Source: Polyangiales bacterium
GTDB lineage: Bacteria; Myxococcota_A; Polyangia; Polyangiales; Houyiibacteriaceae
Length of the DNA stretch: 64,000 bases
Assembly (NCBI GenBank): GCA_045106895.1
Contig: JBGCFM010000041.1
Span: forward strand, 10,585-74,584
Direction of reading: 5' to 3'
Shown: one piece after another, positions 7,404 through 35,162 of the stretch
How positions within the stretch are numbered: the first letter of the stretch is position 1
Layout of the letters: every line of letters starts with the position of its first letter
Position numbers and translations under genes: made by a program
Notes under the pieces: model-generated
Told to the model about the DNA's origin: nothing
Database searches by the model: none
Seen by the model: only the letters and a program-made list of their open reading frames with translations

Positions 7404-7440
7404 CGCCTAGAAACTCATGCGAGATGTACTAGGACCCCCT

Positions 7441-7845: not shown

Positions 7846-7858
7846 CTACGACTTCCGA

Positions 7859-9949: not shown

Positions 9950-11099
9950 GCTAACACGCATCGGCGACTATGAGCTCGAGGCCCCCCTCGGCCGCGGCGG
10001 GATGGCAGAGACCTACGTTGCAGTTCGCCGTGGCGAGGGCGGCTTCGAACAACGCGTTTGCCTGAAACGGATCCTCCCAGCCTATGCTGGGGACCTGGAG
10101 TTCCTCCGCTCGTTTCAGGAGGAAGCGCGCGTGAGCGCCAAGCTTCGTCACACCAACATCGCTCAGATCCTCGATTTCGGAACCGGCGAGGACGCCTACT
10201 TGGCCTTGGAGCTCATCGAAGGATGCAACCTTCACGAGCTCCTTCATCACCGACGTCAAGCGAACGAAGTCCTGCCCGCAGGGCTCATCGCTTATATCGC
10301 TCACGAGCTCGGCCAGGCGCTGGCATACGCGCACGAGAGTGAAGTCGTTCATCGTGACGTCTCGCCAAGCAACGTGCTCCTAAGCCGAAGCGGCGAGATC
10401 AAACTCACCGATTTTGGAATCGCTCGGGCGCGTGACCGCACCCGGATGACGGAAGCGGGCCTGATCAAAGGCAAGATCCCCTACATGGCGCCTGAGTACG
10501 CGCAGGGCGAAGAGGCCAACGCGCAGACAGACCTCTTTTCGTTGGGTGTCACCCTCTACGAGGCGGCGGCGTTGCGGCGCCCGTTCCGTGGAAAGAACAG
10601 CGTAGCCCTTCTCAAGTCCCTTCAAGCGGGCGAGCGTCCCCCGCTTCGTTCCCTCGTCGACCTGCCTGAGGATCTCGCCGGCGCCATCGAAGCCTGCCTC
10701 GCTCCCAAGGCCATCGACCGGCCGGCGAGCGCCCGCGCGTTTCTTGAGAGTCTCGAGAAGATCCCGGCGCCTCCAACCGCGCGGCGCCTCTTGGGACGAG
10801 CACTTCCAAAGAAGGCAGGAAAGCCCACGAAAGTGCTCACACCGGAGGCGATGGCACAAACGCAGTCAGCCCCCGACACCGAGTTTTCGCCAGCCACAGA
10901 GGTCCTCGACGAAGCGCCGGCGCCAAGACACGAAGTTGTGATGGCGGCATCTTCGGACGCTGAGACGCGCACCCGCGCCGCGCTCACGCTCGTGGAGCCT
11001 ACGGCTACGCCAGACGCACCAAAGCGCTCCCCGCTGCTCATCGCAGCTGGAGCGCTCCTTCTGGTTGTCTGTGCTCTGGGTTTCTGGCTCCTCGCGTAG
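9939..11099 (+). CDS. Ser/Thr protein kinase with C-terminal membrane anchor
   Basis: GRGGMAETY, VCLKRI, HRDVSPSNVLL, DFGIAR and YMAPEY. Terminal TM segment LLIAAGALLLVVCALGFWLLA. The GTG at 9939 is proposed as the start because the listed 9693 start lies inside the aldehyde dehydrogenase gene. Confidence 0.85.
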   Translation: MANELTRIGDYELEAPLGRGGMAETYVAVRRGEGGFEQRVCLKRILPAYAGDLEFLRSFQEEARVSAKLRHTNIAQILDFGTGEDAYLALELIEGCNLHELLHHRRQANEVLPAGLIAYIAHELGQALAYAHESEVVHRDVSPSNVLLSRSGEIKLTDFGIARARDRTRMTEAGLIKGKIPYMAPEYAQGEEANAQTDLFSLGVTLYEAAALRRPFRGKNSVALLKSLQAGERPPLRSLVDLPEDLAGAIEACLAPKAIDRPASARAFLESLEKIPAPPTARRLLGRALPKKAGKPTKVLTPEAMAQTQSAPDTEFSPATEVLDEAPAPRHEVVMAASSDAETRTRAALTLVEPTATPDAPKRSPLLIAAGALLLVVCALGFWLLA

Positions 11100-20057: not shown

Positions 20058-21437
20058 TTATTCGCCGGCGCCCGCGAGGGCTTCGTCGATCATCTTCTGA
20101 TGCTCTTCCGGCCGTGCCCAGCGCTCCTTGCCTTCTTCGGGCAAGAGGTCGACGGGATCGAAGTAGAGGAAGTTCTGACCGGGCTTCACCGAAGGCGCCG
20201 TGTACACGCTGATGCCGGTGGTGCGGTTGTAATACTCGTGGCTGTGAACCTCGCGCTTGCCGCCACCGCCTGGTGCGTCCACCACGAAGGTTGGCGTGTT
20301 GAAGCCGGCGGTGCTCCCGCGGACATGCTTCTCGATGACCTTCGCCGTGTGCACCGTTGTTCGTAGCTCTTCCACCCCCTTCACGAGGTCGTGCTGGTAG
20401 ACGTAATAAGGGTGCGCGTTCACGTATGCGCAGCGCCGAACCAACGTCGTCATCGTCTCCACGTCGTCGTTTACTCCTCGCTGGAAGACGGACTGGTTTC
20501 GCACGTGCACGCCGTGTTCGAAAAGACGCCCCAGAGCACGCGCGGTGATGGCGGTGATCTCATTCGGGTGATTGAAGTGGGTGTGCAGCATCACGTCCTT
20601 GTGAAGCTTGCGGCCCTTCTCCACGACACCGACGAGGGCCTTGAACCAGTCATCGTCGCTCAAGAGCTTCTGCGGCATGACCGCCGGTCCCTTCGAGGCG
20701 AAGCGCATGCGCCGGACGTGCGGGATGTCCAGGAGTCGCTCGCCAAGCGTCGTGATCTGTGCCGCACGAAGGTTCCAGGCGTCGCCACCGCTGATGACGA
20801 TGTCCTCAAGCTCGGGCCGTGACGCGATGTAGTCGAAGATGACTTCCCATCGCTTCGGCGATGCCTTGAGGCTTACCTTCTCCACCATGTCCTGGTCGGG
20901 ACCGACGGCGTAGGAGCGCGTGCAAAAGCGGCAGTACACGGGGCACGTGTCGAGGGCGAGGAGCAACGCTTTGTCGGGGTAGCGATGCGTGAGACCGTCG
21001 ACGGGCGCGTCGCCCTGCTCGCCGAGGGAGTCGAAGGTGAGCTTCGGGTGGTCTGGCAGAAGCGTGGACTTCGTCGGCAAGAACTGAGTCCGAATCGGAT
21101 CGTGGTACGGGTTCTGCCAGTCGACGAGGCTCAGCATGTACGGCGAAACACGCACCGCCATGGGCGCCATGGCGAAGCCCTCCGCCGCGTCGTCGAGGAA
21201 CGCATCACTCGCCAGGCCGCGAACAGCATCGAGGAGCTTTTCCGGCTTCGTGATGGAGTTCTTCATCTGCCATCGGTGGTCGAGGAAGCTCTTTTCGTCG
21301 ACGTCGGCAAAAGCCGGTATTTTGCGCCAAAAATCGCCATCCAGCAGGTCGCGGTGTGCATAGGTGGACGGATCCGCAGGCGGTTTGACCGCTCGTGGTG
21401 CGCTTTCGCCTTCGAGGACTTTGAGTTCAACTCCCAT
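20058..21437 (-). CDS. KamA-family radical SAM aminomutase (lysine 2,3-aminomutase-like)
   Basis: CPVYCRFCTRSY is the CxxxCxxC cluster. The family-typical context (ISGGD, HTHFNHPNE) is present. 459 aa, the long form. Confidence 0.85.
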   Translation of the reverse strand: MGVELKVLEGESAPRAVKPPADPSTYAHRDLLDGDFWRKIPAFADVDEKSFLDHRWQMKNSITKPEKLLDAVRGLASDAFLDDAAEGFAMAPMAVRVSPYMLSLVDWQNPYHDPIRTQFLPTKSTLLPDHPKLTFDSLGEQGDAPVDGLTHRYPDKALLLALDTCPVYCRFCTRSYAVGPDQDMVEKVSLKASPKRWEVIFDYIASRPELEDIVISGGDAWNLRAAQITTLGERLLDIPHVRRMRFASKGPAVMPQKLLSDDDWFKALVGVVEKGRKLHKDVMLHTHFNHPNEITAITARALGRLFEHGVHVRNQSVFQRGVNDDVETMTTLVRRCAYVNAHPYYVYQHDLVKGVEELRTTVHTAKVIEKHVRGSTAGFNTPTFVVDAPGGGGKREVHSHEYYNRTTGISVYTAPSVKPGQNFLYFDPVDLLPEEGKERWARPEEHQKMIDEALAGAGE

Positions 21438-21501: not shown

Positions 21502-22554
21502 GTGCTTTCTTTGACCAGCGCGTCCTGGTGGGGCAAGCGTGAAGGCGTGCAAGATCAGCTCATCTTCGTCATCTCGCCGCCGCGCGCAGGTTCTACCCTC
21601 CTTCAGCGAATGCTGGGGGCCCATAGCGAAGTGTTTACGCATCCCGAGCCACACCTCATCACGCCGCTTGAGCACCTTGGGTACTTTGCCCGCGTCGACG
21701 GGGCGCCGTACGACCACGTCAACGCCTCCGAGGCGATGCGTACCTTCGTCGATGGCCTCCCCGGCGGCGAAGCCGACTACCTCGACGCGCTCCGAGCGTA
21801 CGCCGACACCCTCTACGGCCGGATGCTCTCCACAAGCGAAAAGAGCCGCTTCCTCGACAAAACGCCGGCGTATGCGCTCTCCCTCGACTTCCTCGTCAAG
21901 CTTTACCCTCAAGCCAAGTACGTCGTCCTAACTCGCCACCCCTTGGCGGTGTTCAGCTCCTACGCGAACAGCTTCTATGGCGGCAACTGGGAGGAAGCCC
22001 GAAGCTTCAATCCCGTCATCGAGCGATACGTGCCCGCGATGGCGAGCCTCCTTCGCGAGCGGCCGGTGCCGATCTGCCATGTGGCCTACGAGCAGCTTGT
22101 CGCTCAGCCGGCGGCTCAGCTCGAACGCATCTTCGCGTACCTTGGACTCGAGAACCAACCCGAAGCCGTCAACTACGGCAAGACCAAGATGAAGGCCGGA
22201 ATGGGCGACCCGATCAACGTCGCGAAGCACTCGCGGCCCATGACGGCGTCCATCGAGAAGTGGGCCGAAGAGCTGGCCGCCGATCCGAAAAAGCGCGCCC
22301 TCGCTGAAGAGATGATCGCACGGATTCCGCCGGAAGATCTCGCCGAGTGGGGCTACGACGGCGACTCACTCTGGGCGCCTCTCGCCGGCGCGGGAAGCAA
22401 CCCTCCCCCGAAGACGCCGCTCAACAGCTACACCTTCCAGCGCAACGTCATGCGTCTCGCGCGAAACCAAGTTCACGCTCGAAGCGGCGGCGTCGAGCTG
22501 GTGAAGAAGGTGCGCTACTACTGCGATGTATTGCTTCGAAACCGCTTAGGTTGA
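21502..22554 (+). CDS. Sulfotransferase family protein
   Basis: ISPPRAGSTLLQRML resembles the 5'-PSB loop for PAPS binding. The downstream RHPLAVFSS region also fits the family. GTG start. Confidence 0.72.
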   Translation: MLSLTSASWWGKREGVQDQLIFVISPPRAGSTLLQRMLGAHSEVFTHPEPHLITPLEHLGYFARVDGAPYDHVNASEAMRTFVDGLPGGEADYLDALRAYADTLYGRMLSTSEKSRFLDKTPAYALSLDFLVKLYPQAKYVVLTRHPLAVFSSYANSFYGGNWEEARSFNPVIERYVPAMASLLRERPVPICHVAYEQLVAQPAAQLERIFAYLGLENQPEAVNYGKTKMKAGMGDPINVAKHSRPMTASIEKWAEELAADPKKRALAEEMIARIPPEDLAEWGYDGDSLWAPLAGAGSNPPPKTPLNSYTFQRNVMRLARNQVHARSGGVELVKKVRYYCDVLLRNRLG

Positions 22555-22560
22555 ACGACC

Positions 22561-22586
22561 AACCCCAGTGTTCGAACACTGGGGTT
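22561..22586. terminator. Perfect 26-bp palindrome between convergent genes (possible bidirectional terminator hairpin)
   Basis: AACCCCAGTGTTCGAACACTGGGGTT equals its own reverse complement. It starts 7 nt after the sulfotransferase stop and overlaps the stop codon of the glutaredoxin fusion gene. There is no U-tract on either side. Confidence 0.4.
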
Positions 22587-23499
22587 AGTAGCGGGGCACG
22601 CTTGGGTCGACGTCCTGGCTCCAGGCGTCGATACCGCCGCGGAGATTGTAGACGTTCTGGAAGCCCTGGGAAATGGCGTGCTCGGCTGCGCGCTGGCTTC
22701 GTCCGCCGTGGTGACACTGGAAAACGATGGTGGCGGCGCGGTCGAGACCGTCCAAGAAGGCGCGGCACTCGTCATCGAGGAAGCGAGTTCCTTCGATGCT
22801 GGCGGTGGCGCGCTCTTCGGCGGTTCGCACGTCGATGAACTCGAAGGGCTTCCCGCCGTCGAGCCATTCCTTGGCCTGTTCGACTTCGAGCTGCTGCACT
22901 TTCGCGGGCTCGTTGGGGTTGTCGATCTTGAAGCCCGCACCTTCCGCACCTTCGACGAAGTCGATGGTCATTCCGTCGGCCTTGCGGGCCGTGGCGCGTT
23001 TCATCACGACGGTCCAATCGCCGCCCTTGATGACGATGTCGTTCGGGCGAGCCTCGTCGAAATCGAGGCCGTACTGCCAGCGTCCCGATATCTCCAGGCG
23101 GATAACGATGGGCTGACCCTCGGCGAACTCTTTGAGCTTGGCGAGCGCCCCTTCGGTGAGGAAGACCTCCGGTGTCTTCAGCTCGGCGCGCGTAACGCCG
23201 AGAACTCCGTCGAGTTCCCCGTTCTCGCTCATCTCCGTGACGATGTCGCAGCCGCCGACGAAGTCCCCCTTCACGTAGAGCTGCGGGATGGTGGGCCAGG
23301 AGGAGAACTCCTTGATGCCTTCGCGGATGTCCGGGGCGCTGAGAACATCCACGGTCTTGTATTCGGGAAGGTACTCATCGAGGGCAGCGACAACTTTTGC
23401 GCTGAATCCACACTGGGGGGCGTCTCGGTTGCCCTTCATGAAGAGAACCACGGGGCTCTCGGCGACGATCTGGGCGATTTGGGCCTGCACATTGCTCAT
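22585..23499 (-). CDS. Three-domain fusion: monothiol glutaredoxin (CGFS) + Cys-less HesB/IscA-like domain + rhodanese
   Basis: PQCGFSAKV and WPTIPQLYVKGDFVGG are Grx4-type. The middle domain has an A-type-carrier pattern (IRLEISG..YGLDFD, IDFVEG..GFKIDNPN) without the carrier cysteines. The C-terminal rhodanese has the active loop CHHGGRS. The start is set to the ATG at 23499. Confidence 0.85.
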   Translation of the reverse strand: MSNVQAQIAQIVAESPVVLFMKGNRDAPQCGFSAKVVAALDEYLPEYKTVDVLSAPDIREGIKEFSSWPTIPQLYVKGDFVGGCDIVTEMSENGELDGVLGVTRAELKTPEVFLTEGALAKLKEFAEGQPIVIRLEISGRWQYGLDFDEARPNDIVIKGGDWTVVMKRATARKADGMTIDFVEGAEGAGFKIDNPNEPAKVQQLEVEQAKEWLDGGKPFEFIDVRTAEERATASIEGTRFLDDECRAFLDGLDRAATIVFQCHHGGRSQRAAEHAISQGFQNVYNLRGGIDAWSQDVDPSVPRY

Positions 23500-23583: not shown

Positions 23584-24348
23584 ATGAGTCGTCTGGTTGC
23601 TTTCCTTGCGGTTTTCGCCCCTGCCCTGGCCCTGGCCCAAGGGGGCTCCGAGCTGGCGCCTCCGCCGACTTCGTCCGGCGTGGCCGTGGACGTGGAGGTC
23701 AATGCCGAGCTTGAGCCCGAGGGCCAAAGCGACCCAGGCGCTGGGGACACGCCGCCGCCGGTGGTCTATGCGCAGCCTCATGGCCAGGGCGCGGTCCAAG
23801 TCGCTCCGGTTCAGCCAGCTGTGCTCCCGCCCCAGCCCCGCGGCGCCCCCGTGGCGCCTTCTGGGTATGGTCCGCAACCAAACGCCTACGCCCCCGGCCA
23901 GCAGAACGTGTACGCGCCGGGCCAGCCCTACGTATATCCGCCGCGCCGATCGCGACATGTCCGCATTCGCTACCGAGAAGGCATGGAAGTCCCCGAGGGC
24001 GCCTCCATCGTCGAGCGTCGCCGCCGTGGGCTACTCATCGCCGGCATCGCCGCATTCGCGGCCTCGTACGGCATCTCAGCCGTGTTCGCGTCCCTCGACG
24101 CCGATCTCGCGATCATGGCGGTTCCCTTCGCGGGACCACTGATCTGGCAAGCGCGCGATGGCAGCTCCGACACCGCCGCGGGTATGGCTTTCCTTTCCAT
24201 CGCCCAGGTGGCAGGAGTGGTGCTCTTTGCCCTTGGTCTGCGAAAACGAACCTACATCGAATATTGGGCCGACAGGGATGGTCCAACCCTTATTGTGACT
24301 CCAGACATCACTCCCCAGTATGCCGGTGTCTCCCTCACGCTTTTCTGA
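23584..24348 (+). CDS. Secreted/membrane Pro-rich protein with C-terminal TM helices
   Basis: MSRLVAFLAVFAPALALAQG signal sequence, PQPxAYAPGQ repeats, and three hydrophobic segments near the C-terminus. The part of the listed 556-aa ORF upstream of 23584 is antisense to the glutaredoxin gene. Confidence 0.55.
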   Translation: MSRLVAFLAVFAPALALAQGGSELAPPPTSSGVAVDVEVNAELEPEGQSDPGAGDTPPPVVYAQPHGQGAVQVAPVQPAVLPPQPRGAPVAPSGYGPQPNAYAPGQQNVYAPGQPYVYPPRRSRHVRIRYREGMEVPEGASIVERRRRGLLIAGIAAFAASYGISAVFASLDADLAIMAVPFAGPLIWQARDGSSDTAAGMAFLSIAQVAGVVLFALGLRKRTYIEYWADRDGPTLIVTPDITPQYAGVSLTLF

Positions 24349-25546
24349 GCCACCACTTCCTTTTTTTGTGCGACCACCACTCCCCCTCACGGCCTTCGCT
24401 CTAACCAGCGGTCTCGGAAGTTCCGCGCATGATGCGCTCGCAGCCTTAAAGAAAGGGGAGCGAGGGCTACGTGCGCCTCCCGTCGACGTCCCCTTCGAGA
24501 CGGTCACCGGAACGGTGCCTTTTGAGCTCCCCGAGCTGCCTCTCGAATACGCGCACATGGAGTCGCGAAGTGCGCGCCTCGCCTTGCATGCATACGAGCA
24601 GATTCATGGCGCCGTCGACAACGCTTTGTCGCGTTGGGGCGCGTCACGCGTCGCGCTTATCCTCGGCACCAGCACCGGCGGCATCGATCGAACGGAATAC
24701 GCCCACGCTGCCTGGTGGACGGCTGGGCAAGGCGACTCTCCTCTCCCAGCCGACTATCGCTACGAGACCCAGCATCCGTTTCACGCCTTCAGTGATCTGC
24801 TCGCGCTGCGAAGCGGGATCCTTGGCCCGCGTTATGTGGTCTCGACGGCCTGCAGTTCAAGCGCCAAGGCCTTTGCTTCCGCGCGACGTCTCATCGAACT
24901 CGACATTGTCGACGCAGTGCTGGTCGGGGGCGTGGACGCCCTGTGTCACACCACAGTGCGCGGATTCCATGGCCTCGGCGTCATGGCCGACCGACCGTGC
25001 ATGCCCTTCGGGAAAGACCGCCCGGGGATGAACGTCGGCGAGGCCGCCGCTTTCCTTATGGTCGAGCGAGACGGCGAGGCACTGGCGCTTCTTCGCGGCG
25101 TCGGCGAGAGCTCAGACGCGTATCATATGTCTTCGCCCCAGCCCGAAGGCCTGGGCGCCGCTGCCGCCATGGAAGCGGCTCTCCGGGAGGGCGGCGTCAA
25201 GAGCACCGAAGTGGACTACATCAACGCTCACGGGACGGGAACCCGCCACAACGACGCCGCCGAATCGACGGCACTCAACCGCCTCTTCGGCTCGGACACG
25301 CCTGTCGTGAGCACCAAGGCGTACACGGGCCACACCTTGGGCGCGTGCGGCGGCGCGGAAGCGATCCTCTCGATTCTCTCACTTCAGCATGGCTTCGTTC
25401 CGGCGGCGCTCGGAAGCAGCCCCGTCGACGACGGCATCGACCTGCACCTGCCTCAAACTCTCGAAGAGCGTCCTCTCCGCTACGCGCTAAGCAACGCATT
25501 CGCCTTCGGCGGCAACAACTGCAGCGTGCTTTTGGAGAAAGCATGA
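24320..25546 (+). CDS. Beta-ketoacyl-ACP synthase (KS), type II PKS/FAS-like
   Basis: STACSSS (Cys), AHGTGT and GHTLGACG (two His). The start is uncertain: 24320 overlaps the upstream gene, and an in-frame GTG at 24368 is an alternative. Confidence 0.85.
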   Translation: MPVSPSRFSEPPLPFFVRPPLPLTAFALTSGLGSSAHDALAALKKGERGLRAPPVDVPFETVTGTVPFELPELPLEYAHMESRSARLALHAYEQIHGAVDNALSRWGASRVALILGTSTGGIDRTEYAHAAWWTAGQGDSPLPADYRYETQHPFHAFSDLLALRSGILGPRYVVSTACSSSAKAFASARRLIELDIVDAVLVGGVDALCHTTVRGFHGLGVMADRPCMPFGKDRPGMNVGEAAAFLMVERDGEALALLRGVGESSDAYHMSSPQPEGLGAAAAMEAALREGGVKSTEVDYINAHGTGTRHNDAAESTALNRLFGSDTPVVSTKAYTGHTLGACGGAEAILSILSLQHGFVPAALGSSPVDDGIDLHLPQTLEERPLRYALSNAFAFGGNNCSVLLEKA

Positions 25547-26292
25547 ACGTGCATGTCCGAGGGCACGCCTTCTGGGCACCCGGCTACGCGTCGATGGATG
25601 CGTTTGAGTCCGGGGACCGAGATGAGTCGCTCGAGCGACCGGCCATCGCATTCGTGGACTCGCGCATGAAGCGCGCGACGAGCTTGATGACGCGCATGTC
25701 GGTGCACTGCGTGGCAGGAGCCATCGAGTCGAGCGGCCTTCCATTGGATGGCTGCGCGACGGTCTTCGGCTCGGAGCATGGGGAGATTCAAATCGCCGTC
25801 GATCAGATGGTGATGATGCAGGACGGCGAAGGCCGCATTTCCCCCGCGCGTTTCAAGAACAGCGTGCACAACACCGCGGCAGGGCTGTTTTCCATCGCGG
25901 CAAAGAACAAAGGTTTCACGACGGCGCTGGCCGCGGGGGCCGACACCTTCCCGCTCTCACTCCTCGAGGGCATGGCCCTGTTGAAAGCCGGCGACGCAAA
26001 ACACGTCGTCATCGTCGTCGCGGACGAGCCGCTGCCCCAACCGATCGCACACGCGTCGACGCACACAGCGATGGCCATCGCCCTCGCGCTGAGCACGGAG
26101 AAGGGCCCCGGTCCCGAGATTTCTCTCCCCGTGCTTTCCTCCGCCAAGACGAAGGACACTCCCCCTTCGCAGGTGCCAGAGGCGTTTGCGGAGCACTGCG
26201 GCGCCGCCGCATACCGCTTGCTGGTGGCGATCCGAAACGGCGAGCGCGGCAAGGTGCGACTCAACCCCTCCTGGGAGGTTGAGGTCTCATGA
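25543..26292 (+). CDS. KS-N-terminal-like chain-length-factor type protein (no catalytic triad)
   Basis: FVDSRMKRATSLMTRM and FKNSVHNTAAGLFSIAAKNKG resemble the Ketoacyl-synt_2/CLF-like partners seen in aryl-polyene loci. ATGA overlaps on both sides. Confidence 0.7.
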   Translation: MNVHVRGHAFWAPGYASMDAFESGDRDESLERPAIAFVDSRMKRATSLMTRMSVHCVAGAIESSGLPLDGCATVFGSEHGEIQIAVDQMVMMQDGEGRISPARFKNSVHNTAAGLFSIAAKNKGFTTALAAGADTFPLSLLEGMALLKAGDAKHVVIVVADEPLPQPIAHASTHTAMAIALALSTEKGPGPEISLPVLSSAKTKDTPPSQVPEAFAEHCGAAAYRLLVAIRNGERGKVRLNPSWEVEVS

Positions 26293-27527
26293 CACTGTCT
26301 GGAACAAGGCGGGTCGTGGTCACCGGCGTCGGCCTTGAGACCCCCATCGGCGAGTCCTTCGAGAGCGTGTCGACGGCGCTCCAAGAGGACCAACATGGCG
26401 TCATCCACATGGATGAGTGGGCCGAAGTTGGCGAGATGATCACCCGCCTCGGCGCCCCCGCCCGCAAGCTCGAGCGCAAGCGATGGCCGCGCAAGAAGAT
26501 CCGCAGCATGGGTCGTGTCGCGCTCCTCGCGACGGCCGCGACGGAATCGGCCATCGAGGACTCTGGACTCCCCGTCGACGTGGTTCAACACCCACGGACG
26601 GGCCTCGCCTATGGCTCCACGCATGGCAGCAGCGACGCCTGGGAGGGGTTCGCACGGACGCTCGCGCAGCCCGACGCCCTCTTAGGTCTTGGCTCGAACA
26701 CCTACCTGAAGTTCATGAGCCACACGTGTGCGGTGAACTTGGCCATCTTCTTCGGCATTCATGGGCGCGTGCAGAGCACCTGCGCGGCCTGCGTGAGCGC
26801 GAGCCAAGCCATCGGCGCCGGTTTCGAAGCGATTCGTTTCGGCATGCAGGACGTAATGATCTGCGGCGGGGCCGAAGAGCTTCACTGGGTCTCCACGGGC
26901 GTCTTCGATGTGCTTCAGGCCACTTCGATCCGTTTCAACAAGACTCCTGATCGCTCGCCACGCCCCTTCGACCGCGACCGCGACGGACTCGTCGTCGGCG
27001 AAGGTGCCGCGACCCTTGTCCTCGAGGAGTGGGAGCACGCCAAATCGCGGGGAGCGAAGATCTACGGTGAGGTTATTGGCTTTGGAACGAGCTGCGACGG
27101 CACCCATATTACCTCGCCCTCCCCCACGGGCATGGAGGCCGCCATGCGGCTGGCCTTGGATGATGCTGGCGTAAGCCCTAGCGACATCGACTACATCAAC
27201 GCCCACGCGACGGCCACGGAGGTTGGTGACATCAGCGAGAGCGCCGCCACCTGGGAGGTCTTCGGCGACAAGACGCCGATCGGCAGCACCAAGGGCTTCA
27301 CGGGTCACACCCTCGGGGCGTGCGGCGCCATGGAGACGGCGTTCTGCCTCGCGATGATGCGAGACGGTTTCATCGCCCCGAGCCGAAACCTTGAGAACGC
27401 AGATCCCAAGTGCGCGCCGCTCGGATACGTGGTCGGCGACGCCCGTGACACTCGCCCGGACATCGTTCTCAACAACAACTTCGCCTTCGGCGGAATCAAC
27501 ACCTCACTCGTGGTCAAACGCGTATGA
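26289..27527 (+). CDS. FabF-like beta-ketoacyl-ACP synthase II
   Basis: VVVTGVGLETPIG, CAACVSASQAIG (Cys), NAHATATEVGD and GHTLGACG (two His), FAFGGINTSLV. Confidence 0.87.
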   Translation: MTLSGTRRVVVTGVGLETPIGESFESVSTALQEDQHGVIHMDEWAEVGEMITRLGAPARKLERKRWPRKKIRSMGRVALLATAATESAIEDSGLPVDVVQHPRTGLAYGSTHGSSDAWEGFARTLAQPDALLGLGSNTYLKFMSHTCAVNLAIFFGIHGRVQSTCAACVSASQAIGAGFEAIRFGMQDVMICGGAEELHWVSTGVFDVLQATSIRFNKTPDRSPRPFDRDRDGLVVGEGAATLVLEEWEHAKSRGAKIYGEVIGFGTSCDGTHITSPSPTGMEAAMRLALDDAGVSPSDIDYINAHATATEVGDISESAATWEVFGDKTPIGSTKGFTGHTLGACGAMETAFCLAMMRDGFIAPSRNLENADPKCAPLGYVVGDARDTRPDIVLNNNFAFGGINTSLVVKRV

Positions 27528-28738
27528 AACTTCACGATTGTATTGTCGTCGGCGGAGGCCCCGCAGGGTCCACGGTTGGCTCTCTCCTCGCAAAAGACGG
27601 GCACGACGTACTCGTCCTTGAAGCGGATGTCTTTCCACGCTTCCACATCGGCGAATCGCTGCTGCCGTCGGAGCTCCCCATTTTCGAAAAGCTAGGTTTC
27701 GAAATGAGCGGGATGTCATCGGTGTTCAAAGAGGGCGCTGACTTTCTCGACGAACGCAGCGGAAAGTGCGCGCGTTTCGCCTTCGCAGAAGGGCTCGAGG
27801 GCACACGTCCCCACTCCTATCAGGTCGAACGCGCCGTGTTCGACGAAGCACTCTTGAATCACTGCGCAGGACTCGGGGCGCAGGTTCAGCAGGATACAAA
27901 AGTCGTCGACATCGACATTCAAAAGGACTTCGTGTGCGTCCGCACCGCCGATGCCGATCACCGTGCCCGTTATGTTGTCGACGCGACGGGCCGCGATCGG
28001 GTCCTCTCGAAACAGCACAAGAGCTATGAGCGCCTCCAAGGCTTGGGACTCGCGGCGGTTTGGGCGCACTTCGACGGCATGCCGGCGAAACCTCGCGAAG
28101 AACTCGAGAAGACCGGCAACATCATCGTACTCATGCTCGAGAGTGGATGGGGCTGGGTCATTCCACTGAATGGCGGCCGCGTCAGTATCGGGTTCGTGAG
28201 CGCCGAAAAAGGCGTGGTCAGTCACGATTGGTTCGAGGAGGTCTTCGCCGCTAGCCCCTTCCTCCAACGCATCACCAAGGGAGCCCCCCGAAGCCCTCTT
28301 CAGATGGTCGGCGACTACAGCTACAAGAACACCTCGCCGCACGGCCCTCGATGGGCGTGTGTCGGTGACGCGAACGGCTTCCTCGACCCCGTGTTCTCTT
28401 CGGGGGTTGCCTTGGCCATGGCGGGGGCGGAAAAGCTAGCGGAGCTGCTCTCTCCGGCGCTCGCGGAGAAGCGCGAGGACGACGCGGCACTCATGGCTCC
28501 GATGCAGGCGCATATGGACCACGCGTATGGCGTCTTCAACGCGGTATTGCAGAGTTTTTACCACACCAACCTCGTGGACAATCTCTTCTTTTACGACGAC
28601 CCGGACATGAACTTGCGAGCTGGATTGATCAGCATTCTCGCCGGCGACGTATGGCGTGACGACAACGACTTTCAGAAGATGATCCTACGCCGAAACGAAA
28701 AGCGCCTTCGCCGTGCTCGCAAGCTAGTGCCTGCCTGA
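27524..28738 (+). CDS. FAD-dependent oxidoreductase with flavin-dependent halogenase motifs
   Basis: VVGGGPAG, FPRFHIGESLLP, FKEGADF (candidate Lys) and GWGWVIP (WxWxIP). Confidence 0.72.
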   Translation: MKLHDCIVVGGGPAGSTVGSLLAKDGHDVLVLEADVFPRFHIGESLLPSELPIFEKLGFEMSGMSSVFKEGADFLDERSGKCARFAFAEGLEGTRPHSYQVERAVFDEALLNHCAGLGAQVQQDTKVVDIDIQKDFVCVRTADADHRARYVVDATGRDRVLSKQHKSYERLQGLGLAAVWAHFDGMPAKPREELEKTGNIIVLMLESGWGWVIPLNGGRVSIGFVSAEKGVVSHDWFEEVFAASPFLQRITKGAPRSPLQMVGDYSYKNTSPHGPRWACVGDANGFLDPVFSSGVALAMAGAEKLAELLSPALAEKREDDAALMAPMQAHMDHAYGVFNAVLQSFYHTNLVDNLFFYDDPDMNLRAGLISILAGDVWRDDNDFQKMILRRNEKRLRRARKLVPA

Positions 28739-28741
28739 CGT

Positions 28742-29479
28742 CTAGAACCAGCGCCAGAGCCCCGTGTATCGGAGAATGCAGAGCTTCGCGTGCAGCACGC
28801 TGATGGCCACGTTGTCCCAGAAAGCGCGGTAGTGAGAAATGCCGCCTTCGTCGGCGGGGACGTATCGAACTTTCGTAGGAACGTTGACCACGGGAAGGCG
28901 CTTCCAGACGAGCCTGACGGCGATTTCAGGGTCGAAGTCCATCCGATCACCACTGGCGCCGGAAGACACCGCGGCTTCGAGGGGATAGACGCGGAACCCG
29001 CAAAGGGGGTCTTTGATCTTTCCCGGTTTGCCCAGTGTCTCAAGCCAGACCCAGAACACGCTGATCTGCCGGCCCCATCGGCGTGCTCTGGGCGCGCTCT
29101 CATCAAAGAGCGGACGACCTAGGATCAACGCCGCAGGACTCTTCGCGGAAGCCGCGAGGAGCTTGGGCACATCCGCGAGGTCATGCTGTCCGTCAGCGTC
29201 CACCTGGAGCGCGTGAGTGTAGCCTTCTTCCAGCGCCCAACGGAGTCCATCTTTGACGGCTGCGCCTTTTCCGCCGTTGGCTTCTCGTCGACGAACGTAC
29301 GCCCCGTCGATGGTGGCCACCTGCGCCAACGCTGCTTGTGCCGCCTCATCGCCGGCGTCGTCAACGACGAACACCGCCGTCACGTGATCGAGCAAGCCGC
29401 GGACGACGCGCTCGATGGTGACGGGGTTGTTGTACGTCGGCACGACCGCACACGGCCGCACCTCGTCCTCTTGAGCCAT
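28742..29479 (-). CDS. Family 2 glycosyltransferase
   Basis: VVPTYNNPVTIERVV, VVDDAGDE, QVDADGQH (DxD region). Confidence 0.8.
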   Translation of the reverse strand: MAQEDEVRPCAVVPTYNNPVTIERVVRGLLDHVTAVFVVDDAGDEAAQAALAQVATIDGAYVRRREANGGKGAAVKDGLRWALEEGYTHALQVDADGQHDLADVPKLLAASAKSPAALILGRPLFDESAPRARRWGRQISVFWVWLETLGKPGKIKDPLCGFRVYPLEAAVSSGASGDRMDFDPEIAVRLVWKRLPVVNVPTKVRYVPADEGGISHYRAFWDNVAISVLHAKLCILRYTGLWRWF

Positions 29480-29488
29480 GCTCAGTGA

Positions 29489-29746
29489 CTAACGGGTTTT
29501 GGCTACATGCGCCGCCAAGGACCGCACGGAACGAAACACATCGCGTGTGCTCTCGTCCTCGGCCTTGATCTTGACGCCGTACTTCTTGTCGATGGCGATA
29601 GCGAGCTCGAGCGCGTCGATGCTGTCGAGGCCGAGGCCTTCGACGAACAGCGCTGCATCCGATTCGATCTCATCGGCGGTGACATCGTCGAGCATGAGAG
29701 CTTCGACGATGAGGTCTTTGATTTCCTTTTCGAGTTCTGCGCTCAT
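29489..29746 (-). CDS. Discrete acyl carrier protein
   Basis: The 85-aa protein contains GLGLDSIDALEL, the phosphopantetheine Ser motif. GGAGGA RBS before the ATG at 29746. The listed longer ORF start is not supported. Confidence 0.85.
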   Translation of the reverse strand: MSAELEKEIKDLIVEALMLDDVTADEIESDAALFVEGLGLDSIDALELAIAIDKKYGVKIKAEDESTRDVFRSVRSLAAHVAKTR

Positions 29747-29768
29747 GGTTTCCTCCGCGACCGCTGAC

Positions 29769-32468
29769 TCACTTGGCCATCTGGCGAAGGACGTACTGGA
29801 GGATGCCACCATGGCGGAGGTACTCGACCTCTTGCGGAGTATCGAGACGCACGGTGACGGTGAAGCTCTTGCCACTGTCCGTCGTCACCGTGAGCTTCTT
29901 GCCCGGCGTGAGGCCCTCGGCGATGCCGCCGATATCGAAGGTCTCTTCGCCCGTAAGCCCAAGCTCCTCGCGGCCTTCGCCTGCAGCAAACTCGAGAGGA
30001 AGCACGCCCATGCCGATGAGGTTACTGCGGTGGATTCGCTCGTAGCCCTTCGTGATGACGGCCTTGACGCCGAGAAGGAAGGTGCCCTTCGCAGCCCAGT
30101 CGCGGCTCGAACCTGTGCCGTATTGATCGCCGGCGATGACGACCAAAGGCGTGCCTTCAGCCTGGTACTTCATCGACGCATCAAAGATGCTCATCTGCTC
30201 GCCGGAAGGGATGAAGCGCGTGATGCCGCCTTCGGTTCCCGGAGCGAGGAGGTTTCGAAGACGAATATTCGCGAAGGTGCCGCGCATCATCACTTCGTGG
30301 TTGCCGCGGCGGCTGCCGTAGCTGTTGAAATCTCGTGGGCTGACGCCGTTGTCCCGAAGGTACTGGGCGGCTGGGCTGTCCGAGGCGATTCCGCCCGCGG
30401 GAGAGATGTGGTCTGTGGTGACGTTGTCGCCGAGGAGCGCAAGAACCCGCGCGCCCTTCACATCGCTAAGCGCTGGAGGCTCCCCTGCTTCAACTCCGTC
30501 GAAGAAAGGAGGGTTCCGGATGTAGGTGGAGTCCGCTTCCCACTCGTAGGTCTTGCCTGCGGGAGCGTTGACGGCGCGCCACTCTTCCGTTCCCTCGAAC
30601 ACTGCGCCGTAGCGAGCGTTGAACTGCTCCGTGGAAATCGCGTCGCGAAGCGTCTTGGTGATTTCCTCGTTGGACGGCCAGATGTCTCGAAGGAAGACGT
30701 CGTTTCCATCGCTGCCCTTCCCGATGGGGTCCTTCTCGAAGTCGATGTCGATGGTTCCCGCGAGCGCGTATGCGACGACGAGAGGTGGTGACGCAAGGTA
30801 GTTCGCCTGGGTCAGCGGGCTGACGCGACCCTCGAAGTTACGGTTGCCGCTCAGAGCCGAGGTGACGACGAGCTGGTTTTCGACGATGGCCTTGGTGATG
30901 GCCGGGTCGAGGGGACCCGAGTGGCCGATGCATGTGGTGCAGCCATAGCCGACTAGGTGGAAGCGAAGCTTCTCCAAGTCCGTCATGAGGTCTGCCTTTT
31001 TCATGTACTCGGTCACAACCTGGGAACCCGGCGCGAAGCTGGTCTTGACCCAAGGCTTGACCATGAGCCCCTTAGCGATGGCCTTTCGCGCGACGAGACC
31101 TGCACCGAGCATGACGCTTGGATTGGAGGTGTTGGTGCAGCTTGTGATGGCGGCGATGACGATGGAGCCGTCCTTGAGGTCGAAGGTCTCCTTGTCCTGG
31201 CCTTCGCGGTCGAGGGTGACGCTGACGGAAGTCTTTGCGCCTTCCTTCTGGTTCGCCTTCACGCCTTCGTAGGTGCGCTGCCAGCTCGTCTTGCTGTCCG
31301 AGAGCGCGATGCGCGTGTGCGGGAGCTTCGGCCCAGCGATGGAGGGCACAACGTCGCCGAGGTCGAGCTCGAGAACGTCTGTGAACTCGGGGTCCGGGGA
31401 CTCCGCCGTGTGGAAGAGGCTGAGCTCCTTGAGAACTCGCTCCGTAAGCGCAACCTGCTCTTCTTTGCGGCCGGTGAAACGCATGTAGTTGAGCGTCTCT
31501 TTGTCCACGGGGAAGAAGCCCATCGTCGCTCCGTACTCCGGCGCCATGTTGGCGATGGTGGCGCGGTCCGTGAGCGCAAGACTCTCCATGCCGGCGCCGA
31601 AGAACTCGACGAACTTGCCGACGACGCCATGTGCTCGGAGTGCTTCGGTGATGGTGAGAACTGCGTCCGTCGCGGTGGCGCCTTCGCGCAGCTTGCCAGA
31701 GAGCTTGAAGCCTACGACCTGCGGGAGAAGCATCGCGATGGGCTGACCGAGCATGGCCGCTTCCGCCTCGATGCCGCCGACGCCCCATCCGAGGACACCG
31801 AGGCCGTTGATCATCGTGGTGTGGGAGTCGGTGCCGACGAGGGTGTCGGGGTAAGCAACGGTCTTGCCATCGATCTCACGGGTGAAGACGCTGCGCGCGA
31901 GGAACTCAAGGTTCACCTGGTGGACGATGCCGGTTCCGGGAGGAACGACCTGCATGCCCTCGAAGGCGTTCTGGCCCCACTTGAGGAACTGGTATCGCTG
32001 CTTGTTGCGCTGGAACTCGATCTCCACGTTCTGCTCGAAGCTGCGAAGGAGACCGTAGCTGTCGACCTGCACGGAGTGGTCGATGACCAAGTCCGCAGGC
32101 TGAAGCGGATTGATTCGCGCAGGGTCGCCGCCCATCTTCGCGAACTGCTGTCGCATCGCCGCAAGGTCCACCACGGCGGGGACGCCGGTGAAGTCCTGGA
32201 GAAGCACGCGCGAAGGCCGATAGGCGATCTCTGTGACAGGCTTCGCCTTCGGGTCCCACTTGGCGACGGCTTCGATGTCGGCCTTGGTGACGGTGTTTCC
32301 GTCTTCGTGGCGAAGGAGGTTCTCCAGGAGAACGCGAATCGAGTAAGGGAGCCGGCGAACATCGCCAAAACCAGCCTTATCCAGGGCGTCGAGGCGGAAA
32401 ACGTCGACCTTTTGGCCGTTGATGTCGAGTGTGGCGCGGGCGTTGAATCCGTCGAGTGAGGCAGTCAT
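29769..32468 (-). CDS. acnA: Aconitate hydratase A
   Basis: 899 aa. [46 protein letters not shown] and GNRNFEGR are aconitase signatures. Confidence 0.95.
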
Positions 32469-32588: not shown

Positions 32589-33014
32589 ATGGCCACCTTG
32601 AAGAAGAAGCGAAAATCACCCGCTAGTTCAGCAAAAGATCCCGGTGGGCGTGCGAGCCCAGAAGCCATCGAGAAAAGACGCGTCGCGCGGGAACTCAACT
32701 CGCTCATCGCCGGAGACGCGCCGAAGATCGACGGGCGCACCGAACGGCGGCGGAAGCGCCTCCTCAAGGAGCTTCGTAAACCCGAAGAAGGCCTAAAGCC
32801 CATTGAACGTGTGCAGAAGGCCAGTGAACTCTTGGAACTGGGCGAGACCTTCGCGAGCCTACGAAAGCAGGGAGCCGTCGTGGTCAAAGCCGAGGACACG
32901 AAGGAGCTGTGGGCGCTCGTGAAGCGCGCTCAGATCGCCTACGAGTTTGCCCCAGATGCGTGGCGTATTCTCGGGCTCAAAGTGACGGCGAAGGGCGACC
33001 CCCGCAAGGGCTAG
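32589..33014 (+). CDS. Hypothetical basic protein
   Basis: 141-aa ORF with normal codon bias. Lys/Arg-rich N-terminus. Confidence 0.5.
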   Translation: MATLKKKRKSPASSAKDPGGRASPEAIEKRRVARELNSLIAGDAPKIDGRTERRRKRLLKELRKPEEGLKPIERVQKASELLELGETFASLRKQGAVVVKAEDTKELWALVKRAQIAYEFAPDAWRILGLKVTAKGDPRKG

Positions 33015-33031
33015 CGAATCCCTCGGAGGGA

Positions 33032-33607
33032 ATGCTGCAGGCCTCGGATCCGTTCGAGATTCGGATGACGAAACGCGCAAGACCCTTCGAAGCCTACGCG
33101 CTCGTCCTCACCATCTTCACGATGATCTTTTGCGCCCTCGCGCAGCTGGTCCTCGCCTTGCCGCAGATCTTCGGTCCGAGCCGAGGCGAGCTCCCGTGGC
33201 CAGCCACGCTGGTGGCCATCCTGGTCAGCATCGTCGTCATCGCGTTCGCCGCACGTAAGGATGGCGCTCTCCTCGAGCTCAAGTGGTTCGTGTGGGCCCT
33301 CGCCGCCCTCTCCTGGTCCGCGCTCTTCGTCATGCTCACGTTCAGCGAGTCGCCGTGGCAGCTCCTTCACGTCTCGCAGTGGATGGGACGCGCCGAGCCG
33401 ACCAACTTCCTTCGTGCTGGGCTGTGGCGGCCGCTGCACGTTCTCCATGCGCTCGGTCCCGTGGCCCTCGTCCTCGCCGCAAGCGCGCGACGTCACCCCC
33501 CAGCGAAGCGGAAGCAGGTCCTCTTCGCTGGGGTGGTTCCGTGGGCTCTGGGCAGCGCGCTCTACGCGTATCTGCTGACGCTCGCGCCGCCCGTCTACAT
33601 GGGTTGA
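33032..33607 (+). CDS. Integral membrane protein, unknown function
   Basis: Five or six hydrophobic segments. The start is either ATG 33032 or ATG 33065, because the listed 32909 start overlaps the previous gene. Confidence 0.5.
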   Translation: MLQASDPFEIRMTKRARPFEAYALVLTIFTMIFCALAQLVLALPQIFGPSRGELPWPATLVAILVSIVVIAFAARKDGALLELKWFVWALAALSWSALFVMLTFSESPWQLLHVSQWMGRAEPTNFLRAGLWRPLHVLHALGPVALVLAASARRHPPAKRKQVLFAGVVPWALGSALYAYLLTLAPPVYMG

Positions 33608-33620
33608 ACCTACGTGCGAA

Positions 33621-35162
33621 CTACTCCCAGTACTTTCGTCTCCACGGAGCCCCGCGCGAGTAGGAAGGCGGGTCGCCTACCCAAGTTCCGATGGCATCGT
33701 GCAACGCGTCCGACGCGCCGTTGGAAACCGGGCCGAGCGCCGTATCGACGAGCGTGCGGAGCACCGATTCAGAATCAAGGCCGTCCTCTCGATGGAGAGC
33801 AGCCGCCGCAGCCACCACGACCGGAGCGTAGTGGTTAGCGACGATTTCTGTGTCCGAGAGCGACGCCAAGCTCAACTCGACGAACTCGAAGGAGGGTCGC
33901 GCCGCCTGAAGCGAGAGCAGCGCCTCCGCACGCACGACGGGTGATGCGTGGTTCTGAGCAACCCGCATGAGCTCCGCGGTAGCTTCCACGTCTCCCCGCG
34001 ACGCGGGCATGCGAAGTGCGCAAGTTCGCGTCAGCACCTCGGATTCCAGCGCCTTCTCGTAGAACGTCGGGTCCCCCGTCGCTCCCTCACGCGCAAAAAG
34101 CGCCTCCACGCCGATGCACTGAAACTCCGGCTTCGGGTGCAAACAAGCCCAGTGAATCCACTCCTTAGGCAATCGCTCATTGTGAAGAAACGTGCCCCAG
34201 AGCGTGCGGGCCGAAAGCTCCAGTGTTGGGTTCACACCCGCGATATTCAGCCGTAGTGCGCTGAGGTGATCGCGTTTAGACTCCGGAAGTTCTTCCGACT
34301 CCAGCACCCTGTCGATGTGTGCCGCGGCGTCATCCAAACGAGAGAGCAGATGAGCCGCGAGACGCCACTCGGCGTCTTCACGATAAAGAACCGAAGTGGC
34401 CAAATCCGCCAACGCCTCTTGAGGAACCAAACGCAGCAGCCAGCGGCTTGGAAGTGTCAGGGACGCGATAGCGTCCGGGACCAACATGGGGTTCGCTTCG
34501 ATCCATCGTTGGACTTCATCGTCGCTCGCCGACTTTAGCTTCTCCCAGCTCATCTCTTCGTCTCGAAACGCCAGCTCCTGAGACGGCTCAAACTCCAGCG
34601 TCTTCCACGCCAGCGCCGCGTCGAGGCCGCCTTTGTCGCGGAGCCTTTCGTAGATCTTCGTTCGGTGTCCACCGGCCACTTTGAACTCGCCGTGCACGCT
34701 CAGAAGCCGCCGAAGACTTCCCGCGTCCATCTGATCGAGAAGCCTATCGTTGGCCTCCTCGTGACCGGCGAGGCTTCCGAGCACTAAGAAGCCCGCGACG
34801 GGGAAGCGCCATTCGTGCCAGGGACCCAGCCCTCGAACGAACTCATCGACGAGGCGGCCAAACGTCGCAGCACTGATGGGTAGAGACCGTTTGACGAAGA
34901 CGCGAAATAGCGAGACGCGTATCCACGGGTCGTCGTGAGACTCAAGGAGAAGCCGTTCGAGTGCGTCCAGCCGCGCCGGGTGCGCCAGCCGCTCAAGAAG
35001 ACCCGCCGCGGCGCTCTTCCTTCTTCGAGATGTCTTCGAGGTTAGGATACCGACGAGCTCGTCGGTCCAGCGAATCCGAGTCTGAGACTCGGAGAATTGC
35101 ATGTCTTCCATGAGACGCCTTGTTGGGTCCGGGAGGCGATTCCGGAGCGGCGTTTGCCGCAT
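33621..35162 (-). CDS. Hypothetical helical-repeat protein (about 500 aa)
   Basis: Long ORF with coding-like composition. Alternative starts at 35111 and 35102. Confidence 0.55.
   Translation of the reverse strand: MRQTPLRNRLPDPTRRLMEDMQFSESQTRIRWTDELVGILTSKTSRRRKSAAAGLLERLAHPARLDALERLLLESHDDPWIRVSLFRVFVKRSLPISAATFGRLVDEFVRGLGPWHEWRFPVAGFLVLGSLAGHEEANDRLLDQMDAGSLRRLLSVHGEFKVAGGHRTKIYERLRDKGGLDAALAWKTLEFEPSQELAFRDEEMSWEKLKSASDDEVQRWIEANPMLVPDAIASLTLPSRWLLRLVPQEALADLATSVLYREDAEWRLAAHLLSRLDDAAAHIDRVLESEELPESKRDHLSALRLNIAGVNPTLELSARTLWGTFLHNERLPKEWIHWACLHPKPEFQCIGVEALFAREGATGDPTFYEKALESEVLTRTCALRMPASRGDVEATAELMRVAQNHASPVVRAEALLSLQAARPSFEFVELSLASLSDTEIVANHYAPVVVAAAAALHREDGLDSESVLRTLVDTALGPVSNGASDALHDAIGTWVGDPPSYSRGAPWRRKYWE

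Follow-up and report, generated by a model that had tools for sequence, protein, structure and literature searches.

The subject of this analysis is a group of genes within a window of 64,000 nt (the whole stretch of DNA analysed) from a metagenome-assembled genome (MAG) of a Polyangiales bacterium (Myxococcota). The genes are predicted to encode ketosynthases (KS), a chain-length factor (CLF), an acyl carrier protein (ACP), a halogenase and a glycosyltransferase of the aryl-polyene (APE) kind of type II polyketide synthase (PKS). They lie on both strands, beside the gene for aconitase, as follows.

23584-24348, + strand: Memb, a 254-aa protein with a predicted signal peptide, a spacer rich in Pro, Gln and Tyr, and about three predicted hydrophobic helices
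24368-25546 (alternative ATG at 24320), + strand: KS1, ApeO-type ketosynthase (PF00109/PF02801, PRK09185)
25543-26292, + strand: CLF, ApeC-type chain-length factor (PF13723)
26289-27527, + strand: KS2, ApeR-type homodimeric ketosynthase (PF00109/PF02801, PRK09116)
27524-28738, + strand: Hal, predicted flavin-dependent halogenase of the phenol/pyrrole carrier-protein-substrate type, CndH/CmlS/PltA-like (PF04820, 93.9 bits)
28742-29479, - strand: GT2, family-2 glycosyltransferase corresponding to the N-terminal half of ApeJ (PF00535)
29489-29746, - strand: ACP, ApeE-type, 85 aa (PF00550, PRK09184)
29747-29768, - strand: spacer of 22 nt between acnA and the ACP gene, with a GGAGGA Shine-Dalgarno sequence (ribosome-binding site)
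29769-32468, - strand: AcnA, aconitate hydratase (NF006757, 1401 bits)

A preliminary description of this DNA had named six of these genes and joined four, from KS1 to Hal, into one operon through ATGA start/stop overlaps. All six are present as open reading frames (ORFs) where they had been placed, the families proposed for them (PF00109/PF02801, PF13723, PF04820, PF00535 and PF00550) are all matched, and the three overlaps occur at 25543, 26289 and 27524. The motifs that had been read can likewise be found in the translations: STACSSS, AHGTGT and GHTLGACG in KS1, NSVHNTAAGLFSIAAKNKG in its CLF-like partner, CAACVSASQ, AHATATE and GHTLGACG in KS2, GGGPAG, FPRFHIGESLLP, KEGADF and GWGWVIP in the flavoprotein, and the serine motif LGLDSID in the ACP. 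The four genes and their coupling, which is kept in relatives, were therefore correctly described, but the gene that heads the operon had been overlooked and the start of KS1 has to be moved. Operon 1 reads Memb-KS1-CLF-KS2-Hal on the + strand, with the KS1-CLF, CLF-KS2 and KS2-Hal junctions chained by ATGA. The start of KS1 is most likely the GTG at 24368, which gives a protein of 392 aa, because the ATG at 24320 overlaps the upstream Memb gene and orthologues are 392-400 aa long. The stop codons of Hal and GT2 converge with 3 nt between them.

The assignment of the condensing enzymes is based on comparison with the ape cluster of Escherichia coli CFT073 (locus L071), with the Protein Data Bank (PDB) and with NCBIfam, all of which point to ApeO, ApeC, ApeR and ApeE and agree with the earlier proposal of an APE/xanthomonadin-type core. 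KS1 scores 425 bits against PRK09185 (cut-off 407), is 43% identical to E. coli ApeO by blastp and has the ApeO structure 6qsp_A as its top PDB match (5e-79; also 7f28_B), compared with about 1e-50 for the best fatty acid synthase (FAS)-type, FabF-like KS; its Cys-His-His triad is intact. The CLF (MFK7999432.1) is a half-size, KS-like protein without the active-site cysteine, which scores 120 bits against PF13723, matches only 6qsp_B and 7f28_A in the PDB, both of them ApeC, and is 36% identical to E. coli ApeC over 95 aa by blastp. The two genes are translationally coupled, and KS1 is the predicted catalytic partner of the CLF in a heterodimer. KS2 also has an intact triad, scores 524.5 bits against PRK09116 (cut-off 470), is 49% identical to E. 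coli ApeR by blastp and matches 4ewg_A and 7f27_A (AbApeR, 1e-113) in the PDB, compared with about 1e-82 for FabF/FabB. Lee et al. proposed that Tyr135 and Phe202 of AbApeR sandwich the aryl group, the first position being Met in FabB (PMC8358021), and KS2 keeps equivalents of both (NTYLKF and GVFDV). In characterised systems, the ApeR-type enzyme is the initiating KS and the ApeO/ApeC heterodimer carries out elongation (PMC8253772, PMC8358021, bioRxiv 10.1101/2020.12.19.423268). Clustering of the two KS proteins with housekeeping FabB/FabF would have spoken against the proposal, but KS1 reaches only 222 bits against the FabF model TIGR03150 (cut-off 494), and KS2 only 354 against the same model and 342 against FabB (cut-off 630), far below their scores for the Ape families. 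Judged by their sequences, KS1, CLF and KS2 are orthologues of ApeO, ApeC and ApeR.

Hal carries all the signatures of a flavin-dependent halogenase, namely GxGxxG (GGGPAG), WxWxIP (GWGWVIP), FxDPxFSSG (GFLDPVFSSG) and the catalytic lysine, the K of VFKEGADF, which aligns with Lys76 of CndH; these are conserved in 34 orthologues. A PDB search returned 20 matches at E<=1e-5, of which the best 19 are halogenases except for the unannotated flavoprotein 3nix, the last-ranked being a rifampin monooxygenase. The best matches are 8zop_A (3e-46) and CndH (3e1t, 2e-39), with ChlB4, Bmp2, RadH, PltA and CmlS among the others; a literature search on 8ZOP found no relevant paper. No NCBIfam model reaches its cut-off, the CmlS model scoring 151 bits (cut-off 900), QhpG 120 and the geranylgeranyl-reductase family 100. 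The lower score of the last, together with the signatures and the PDB matches, favours the halogenase predicted in the preliminary description over a reductase. With the 'variant B' halogenases CndH, CmlS and PltA, Hal shares GxGxxG, the lysine, WxWxIP and Fx.Px.Sx.G (PDB E-values from about 1e-34 to 3e-46), but at 404 aa it is shorter and is without the extended C-terminal domain of CndH and CmlS. Hal is thus a flavin-dependent halogenase by predicted activity. No flavin reductase gene was identified near the locus.

The ACP scores 101 bits against PRK09184 (cut-off 70) and is 52% identical to E. coli ApeE compared with 35% to ApeF; it is of the ApeE type, the predicted carrier of the aryl-polyene chain, and no second, ApeF-type ACP occurs in the window. 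GT2, which has the DAD motif VDADGQHD, shares 45% identity with E. coli ApeJ (558 aa) over the first 229 residues of the latter. The LpxL-like acyltransferase (AT) half of ApeJ is absent at the window locus and is a separate gene in related clusters. A 569-aa Myxococcota protein (P0318) has GT2 and LpxL-like AT fused as in E. coli ApeJ, and both fused and split forms of ApeJ therefore occur in Myxococcota.

In the definition of Grammbitter et al. (2020), the APE core set comprises the KS apeO/R, the ACP apeE/F, the CLF apeC, the dehydratase (DH) apeI/P, the ketoreductase (KR) apeQ and the transporter apeM. The window supplies the ApeO and ApeR ketosynthases, the ApeC CLF and a dedicated ACP (ApeE). 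Scanning of 56 window ORFs against Pfam and/or NCBIfam, which left aside 4523-4801, 43437-43700, 62106-63059, 63495-63998 and a possible gene at 7400-8450, revealed no KR, DH, adenylating enzyme, thioesterase, AT, LolA or MMPL gene. The absence of accessory genes, earlier noted for about 5 kb on either side, thus extends to all scanned ORFs. In terms of Ape proteins, neither the ApeQ ketoreductase nor the ApeM (MMPL/RND) transporter with its LolA-like and DUF3261 partners was found among them; the ApeI/ApeP dehydratase was found neither there nor in the accessory sub-loci described below (L075, L079, L081), and the ApeH aryl-ACP ligase was not detected in the window, in any locus of its type or in any accessory locus. 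ApeH is present in fuller Myxococcota clusters, and an ApeP-like gene in the related loci L072 and L025. Under a strict definition, with all core genes in one cluster, the locus falls short in KR, DH and transporter.

To place the window among its relatives, a scan with the CLF alignment, with one genome per species, gave 61 loci, all in Myxococcota and spread over Polyangiales, Sandaracinaceae, Nannocystaceae and Kofleriaceae. One of the Nannocystaceae is a cultured organism, Paraliomyxa miuraensis SMH-27-4 (L033), and has a fuller cluster. The window proteins and the full set of 18 Ape proteins of E. coli served as tblastn queries for a matrix of the loci, and the contexts of selected loci were annotated with Pfam. 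Counting the window, 15 distinct loci (about 15 species-level genomes), including L014 on a closed 9.07-Mb chromosome (OZ245758.1), are of the window type: genes for a KamA-like protein, a sulfotransferase and a glutaredoxin (Grx)-rhodanese protein, then Memb-KS1-CLF-KS2-Hal, with no KR or DH. Fuller Myxococcota APE clusters (L031, L034, L043, L044, L050, L052, L064 and also L072) have the same KS1-CLF-...-KS2-Hal order and orthologous Hal, ACP and GT2, with identities to the window of 44-63% for KS1, KS2 and Hal, 33-48% for CLF and 65-70% for ACP. They differ in having ApeQ, with or without ApeP, between CLF and KS2, and either a contiguous ACP-ApeG-ApeH-GT2-AT-ApeK-ApeL series, the whole order then being KS1-CLF-ApeQ-KS2-Hal-ACP-ApeG-ApeH-GT2-AT-ApeK-ApeL, or convergent DUF3261, MMPL, LolA and thioesterase genes. 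L072, with both ApeP and ApeQ between CLF and KS2, is of the latter form, shares the Grx-rhodanese neighbour with the window type and has a truncated Memb; L073 has ApeQ only and shares the HAD, methyltransferase, sulfotransferase and Grx-rhodanese neighbours; L025 has ApeP, ApeQ, ApeM and GT2. Orthologues of Hal stand in fuller clusters together with ApeH and ApeQ, and on this comparison Hal belongs to the ancestral Myxococcota APE cluster. In a neighbour-joining tree of KS1 (without support values), the window type is one clade nested among KR/DH-containing clusters; its KR/DH-less layout is therefore derived.

Other arrangements were also seen. A large Sandaracinaceae/Polyangiales clade (L039-L042, L045, L049, L051, L053, L060-L063, L065 and L066) has the ApeO/ApeC-like KS-CLF pair alone, with no KS2, halogenase, ACP, GT2 or other Ape gene within the flank (<=10 kb; several contigs end sooner). 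Four of these loci have weak (23-31% identity) SDR-like (short-chain dehydrogenase/reductase) or flavoprotein-like matches at a distance of several kb. The lone pair may represent another split cluster or another use of the KS-CLF pair. In L009/L026 (Polyangiales; 10001-11062), a 353-aa protein fuses an ApeC-like CLF to an ApeP-like dehydratase (PF13723 and weak PF22817), and a 521-aa halogenase-like gene lies upstream. In L008/L027 (Sandaracinaceae), KS1-CLF-Hal faces ApeD-ACP-ApeG-GT2-AT-LolA-MMPL-DUF3261, with no ApeR-type KS, KR or DH, a pattern of reduction that differs from that of the window.

Several of the genes missing from the window-type core have been found elsewhere in related genomes. 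When the ApeQ encoded within the L072 cluster served as query, homology searching gave 8000 candidates, the best 120 all at about 70% identity, and this family was too abundant to allow any same-genome inference. One of its hits, P0144, nevertheless lies in a stand-alone sub-locus of Polyangiaceae and TARA MAGs (L074-L077), which encodes ApeQ, ApeG, an LpxL-type AT (the C-terminal half of ApeJ), ApeK, ApeL and ApeM, and no KS, CLF, halogenase or GT2. It supplies most of the genes that the window-type core is without and has no gene in common with it. In L075 (10001-16135), ApeQ-ApeG-AT-ApeK-ApeL is accompanied by a convergent MMPL gene; the KR protein of the L074-L077 sub-locus is identical on >100 marine metagenome contigs, and no KS/CLF partner was recovered. 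A search with the AT led to P0274 on JAEPMI010000001.1 (L079). The assembly of this contig, GCA_017644045.1, also contains the window-type core L019 (JAEPMI010000010.1). L079, on a different contig from the core, reads ApeQ-ApeG-AT-ApeK-ApeL, with identities to the E. coli proteins of 54% (ApeQ), 38% (ApeG), 30% (C-terminal half of ApeJ), 29% (ApeK) and 30% (ApeL). A further protein, P0293 (MFT5356290.1), is encoded on scaffold Ga0535670_0012011 of the JGI metagenome 3300054698, in a run of AT-ApeK-ApeL ended by the contig edge (L081). Its accession lies 1,949 numbers from that of the L010 CLF (MFT5354341.1, scaffold Ga0535670_0004293), which has the same metagenome and organism label. Both L079 and L081 include a LolA-like gene, unlinked to the core, and MMPL occurs in L075 and not in L079; among the small ORFs of the accessory sub-loci that had no annotation, Pfam detected no hotdog dehydratase or ligase. 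It appears from these links that at least two window-type genomes, one being the closest relative of the window (L010, with core proteins 79-95% identical), hold a split APE cluster.

The carrier and glycosyltransferase genes are themselves variable in position. The preliminary description had suggested that the ACP gene, only 22 nt behind the acnA stop and with no hairpin between, might be read through from a gene of the tricarboxylic acid (TCA) cycle. The spacer (GTCAGCGGTCGCGGAGGAAACC) indeed contains a GGAGGA Shine-Dalgarno sequence and no terminator-like hairpin, and 9 nt separate ACP from GT2; a scan for promoters and terminators was uninformative, with counts at or below shuffled expectation. 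The acnA-ACP-GT2 adjacency is found in five loci, with acnA-ACP gaps that are short in three (window 22, L014 41 and L003 -4 nt) and longer in two (L022 120 and L017 319 nt); in a sixth, L010, GT2 stands alone at the contig end. No such adjacency is seen in the flank available for L012, L015, L018, L019, L021 and L028. As this adjacency recurs in related genomes, read-through from acnA is plausible, and acnA is probably the first gene of an acnA-ACP-GT2 transcription unit. ACP and GT2 lie away from the KS operon in six of the 12 assessable window-type loci, from which it follows that the system already works from separate loci.

Comparison with L010 gave ratios of nonsynonymous to synonymous substitution (dN/dS) of 0.035 for KS1, 0.073 for CLF, 0.035 for KS2, 0.102 for Hal, 0.059 for Memb and 0.011 for the GT2 fragment, and of 0.03-0.05 for the flanking KamA-like, sulfotransferase and Grx-rhodanese genes, values that are approximate as dS is about 0.8-1.8 and near saturation. 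The catalytic motifs of KS1 (including its triad), KS2 and Hal are invariant in all 14 assessable window-type loci, and those of ACP and GT2 in the five that carry them. The locus thus appears to be under strong purifying selection and is not a relic.

No Pfam or NCBIfam family is matched by the Memb protein. Its orthologues (33-85% identity) directly precede KS1 in 14 of the 15 window-type loci, none being detected in L017, and the gene is also present, truncated, in L020/L072. From this distribution Memb is taken as the clade-specific first gene of operon 1. The genes next upstream are the following.

22585-23499, - strand: Grx4-IscA-rhodanese fusion (Pfam and NCBIfam matches)
21502-22554, + strand: sulfotransferase
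20058-21437, - strand: KamA-family radical SAM aminomutase-like protein (TIGR00238, 238 bits)

The first of these, with a Grx4-type monothiol glutaredoxin, an IscA/HesB-like and a rhodanese domain, diverges from the Memb-KS operon across an 84-nt spacer and adjoins the KS operon both in the KR-less window-type loci and in KR-containing relatives. It is a conserved neighbour and an unproven candidate member of the pathway. The KamA-like protein shows 76-95% aa identity across window-type loci and 70% in L036, more than AcnA where both are seen, and its gene and the sulfotransferase gene stay together beside the KS operon even in rearranged regions (L022, L036). As pathway members, the KamA-like protein, sulfotransferase, methyltransferase and HAD protein were set aside, being syntenic in the clade with nothing to tie them functionally to the PKS. 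Further upstream lie an ECF sigma/anti-sigma pair and genes for a PhaR-like protein, an RlmI-like methyltransferase, a HAD hydrolase and a methyltransferase. Downstream are acnA, panB, panC, a Ser/Thr kinase gene, comEC, fumC, argH, lysA and others, with fumC and argH 19-30 kb beyond the locus. The ORFs 32909-33607 (+), 33621-35162 (-) and 41528-43222 (-), of 232, 513 and 564 aa, have coding-like codon bias and no Pfam match, nor, in the case of the first two, any NCBIfam match.

Taken together, the locus is probably the core of a halogenated APE-lipid pathway whose genes, in one Polyangiales clade, have become distributed over separate loci. By homology with the Xenorhabdus, E. coli and Acinetobacter systems (PMC8253772, PMC8358021, bioRxiv 10.1101/2020.12.19.423268), an aryl (hydroxybenzoyl) starter on the ACP would be condensed with malonyl units, by the ApeR-type KS in the first place and by the ApeO/ApeC heterodimer next. 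Each round would be followed by reduction, through an ApeQ-type ketoreductase whose gene would lie at another place in the genome, and by dehydration by an enzyme unlinked to the locus, either ApeI/P or the FabZ of FAS. The halogenase would chlorinate or brominate the carrier-bound phenolic head group, as in the brominated xanthomonadins, and GT2 with an unlinked LpxL-type AT may build a glycolipid conjugate, the chain being attached to the glycolipid anchor. ApeK, ApeG and ApeL would take part in release and transport, and delivery to the outer membrane would involve an unlinked thioesterase and ApeG-like and LolA-like proteins. The sequences themselves show the orthology of each gene, the intact catalytic residues, purifying selection, descent from fuller clusters and unlinked accessory sub-loci in two genomes of the clade; the product, the starter, the halogenase substrate, the co-transcription with acnA and the presence of an accessory sub-locus in the genome of the window itself are inferred.

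The preliminary description had left open a minimal or split variant that borrows FAS enzymes. The split is favoured over the minimal form because unlinked accessory sub-loci occur in two window-type genomes (L019 with L079, L010 with L081), and borrowing from FAS is possible for the dehydratase step only; to be without the usual accessory genes is true of the locus and probably not of the genome. Several points nevertheless weigh against a split cluster. The two same-genome links depend on MAG binning, and the accessory sub-locus has been seen in two relatives and not in the window's own genome, of which 64 kb of a 77,453-bp contig were read. The closed L014 chromosome gave no AT match among the best 120 homologues (>=50% identity), a weak negative, and some window-type members may really be without an accessory AT. 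Neither core nor accessory sub-loci have supplied an ApeI/ApeP dehydratase or an ApeH ligase. In a truly minimal pathway, the dedicated reductase, dehydratase, loading, release and export genes would have been lost, and the FabG and FabZ of FAS, with general lipid machinery, would make a polyene-type chain on the ApeE-like ACP. The lack of any accessory family among the scanned window ORFs and of a dedicated dehydratase in window-type genomes would fit such a loss, as would the single CLF locus of the L014 chromosome. Clean deletions in an L027-like or L072-like cluster could also have produced the gene order, as the GT2 and Hal stops, only 3 nt apart, illustrate. This minimal pathway is unlikely, however, given that the unlinked ApeQ, ApeG, AT, ApeK and ApeL orthologues of two window-type genomes (AT-ApeK-ApeL only in L081) have no other KS/CLF partner in the recovered loci. 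It is quite unlikely that the pathway has instead been remodelled to a distinct product, with ACP-GT2 on the acnA transcript, the KS operon beside Grx4-IscA-rhodanese, and a new membrane protein in place of dedicated DH, loading and MMPL functions.

A chemically different product would arise if an unreduced or partly reduced poly-beta-keto chain cyclised to a phenolic or pyrone that was then halogenated and glycosylated. The locus does look like a 'minimal PKS' with tailoring enzymes, halogenases of the Hal type act on electron-rich aromatics, and a changed pathway would agree with the presence of a clade-specific membrane protein and with the lost ApeH neighbour. However, KS1, CLF and KS2 are orthologous to highly reducing APE synthases and nested within KR-containing clusters, KS2 retains the aryl-stacking residues, an ApeQ orthologue exists elsewhere in the clade (L079) and no cyclase or aromatase is present, and such a product is very unlikely. 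It is extremely improbable that the locus is a decaying APE remnant or that its synthases are of the housekeeping FabB/FabF type. Many cluster genes have been lost relative to relatives, and the locus is embedded among housekeeping genes (acnA and panBC, with fumC and argH further off), but dN/dS of 0.03-0.10 with synonymous sites near saturation, catalytic residues invariant across 14 species-level loci and preserved translational coupling are not those of a remnant, and both KS proteins score well above FabF/FabB with the Ape models. The split halogenated APE-lipid pathway is accordingly retained, and the helper-less PKS becomes less surprising because its missing genes are largely explained by genes elsewhere in the genome.

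Xanthomonadin of Xanthomonas, which is brominated, and the yellow pigment of Lysobacter are membrane-bound halogenated aryl-polyenes made by an APE-type type II PKS with a flavin-dependent halogenase and a glycosyltransferase. Xanthomonadin clusters are contiguous and include the chorismatase XanB2 (3-/4-hydroxybenzoate starter), an aryl-ACP ligase, KR, DH and MMPL/LolA export. The window locus resembles them in PKS, halogenase and glycosyltransferase and differs in having no XanB2-type, ligase, KR, DH or MMPL/LolA genes. With the APE clusters of E. coli CFT073, Xenorhabdus doucetiae and Acinetobacter baumannii (apeA-apeR), the window shares ApeO, ApeC, ApeR, ApeE, the glycosyltransferase half of ApeJ and the catalytic residues (PMC8358021, PMC8253772, bioRxiv 10.1101/2020.12.19.423268). 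That cluster consists of 18 contiguous genes, whereas the pathway of the window is not a single cluster and its ApeJ is split into two genes. ApeQ, ApeG, the AT half of ApeJ, ApeK and ApeL are at a second locus in relatives of the window; ApeM is found only in the stand-alone accessory sub-locus of a related Polyangiaceae MAG (L075), for which no KS/CLF partner was recovered; and ApeI/P, ApeH, ApeD, ApeB, ApeF and ApeN were not found. The window adds the halogenase and the new membrane protein, and has ACP and GT2 behind acnA. In the literature searched for split APE clusters of Myxococcota, nothing came up beyond mentions, at the antiSMASH level, of APE biosynthetic gene clusters (BGCs) in Polyangiales. 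The novelty is organisational and lies in a clade-wide split that sets the condensing and halogenating core, the ACP-GT2 pair linked to acnA and the accessory sub-locus apart from one another, with a clade-specific membrane protein and a split ApeJ; no new enzyme class or biosynthetic logic is revealed.

Among the BGC families of Gram-negative bacteria, the APE family is regarded as one of the most widespread, and the compounds made by it are protective against oxidative stress. Where genome mining looks for a single cluster with all core genes, a cluster that is split throughout a lineage can be taken for a 'minimal' or 'incomplete' one, and the uncultured Polyangiales clade of about 15 species described here is affected. 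The natural modules, comprising a condensing and halogenating core, a carrier with its glycosyltransferase, and a reductase with anchoring and release functions, could guide heterologous reconstitution. Aconitase is an oxidation-sensitive Fe-S enzyme, and it is speculative that ACP-GT2 expression is tied to its gene. APE pigments give protection from oxidants, and in E. coli oxidative stress induces them (PMC13532178). If the pathway were remodelled as outlined above, the state of aconitase, as a TCA-cycle enzyme sensitive to oxidation, would be directly linked to the synthesis of a halogenated antioxidant lipid. It is unusual for primary and specialised metabolism to be paired as they are here, where the genes for an APE carrier and glycosyltransferase recurrently follow that for aconitase.

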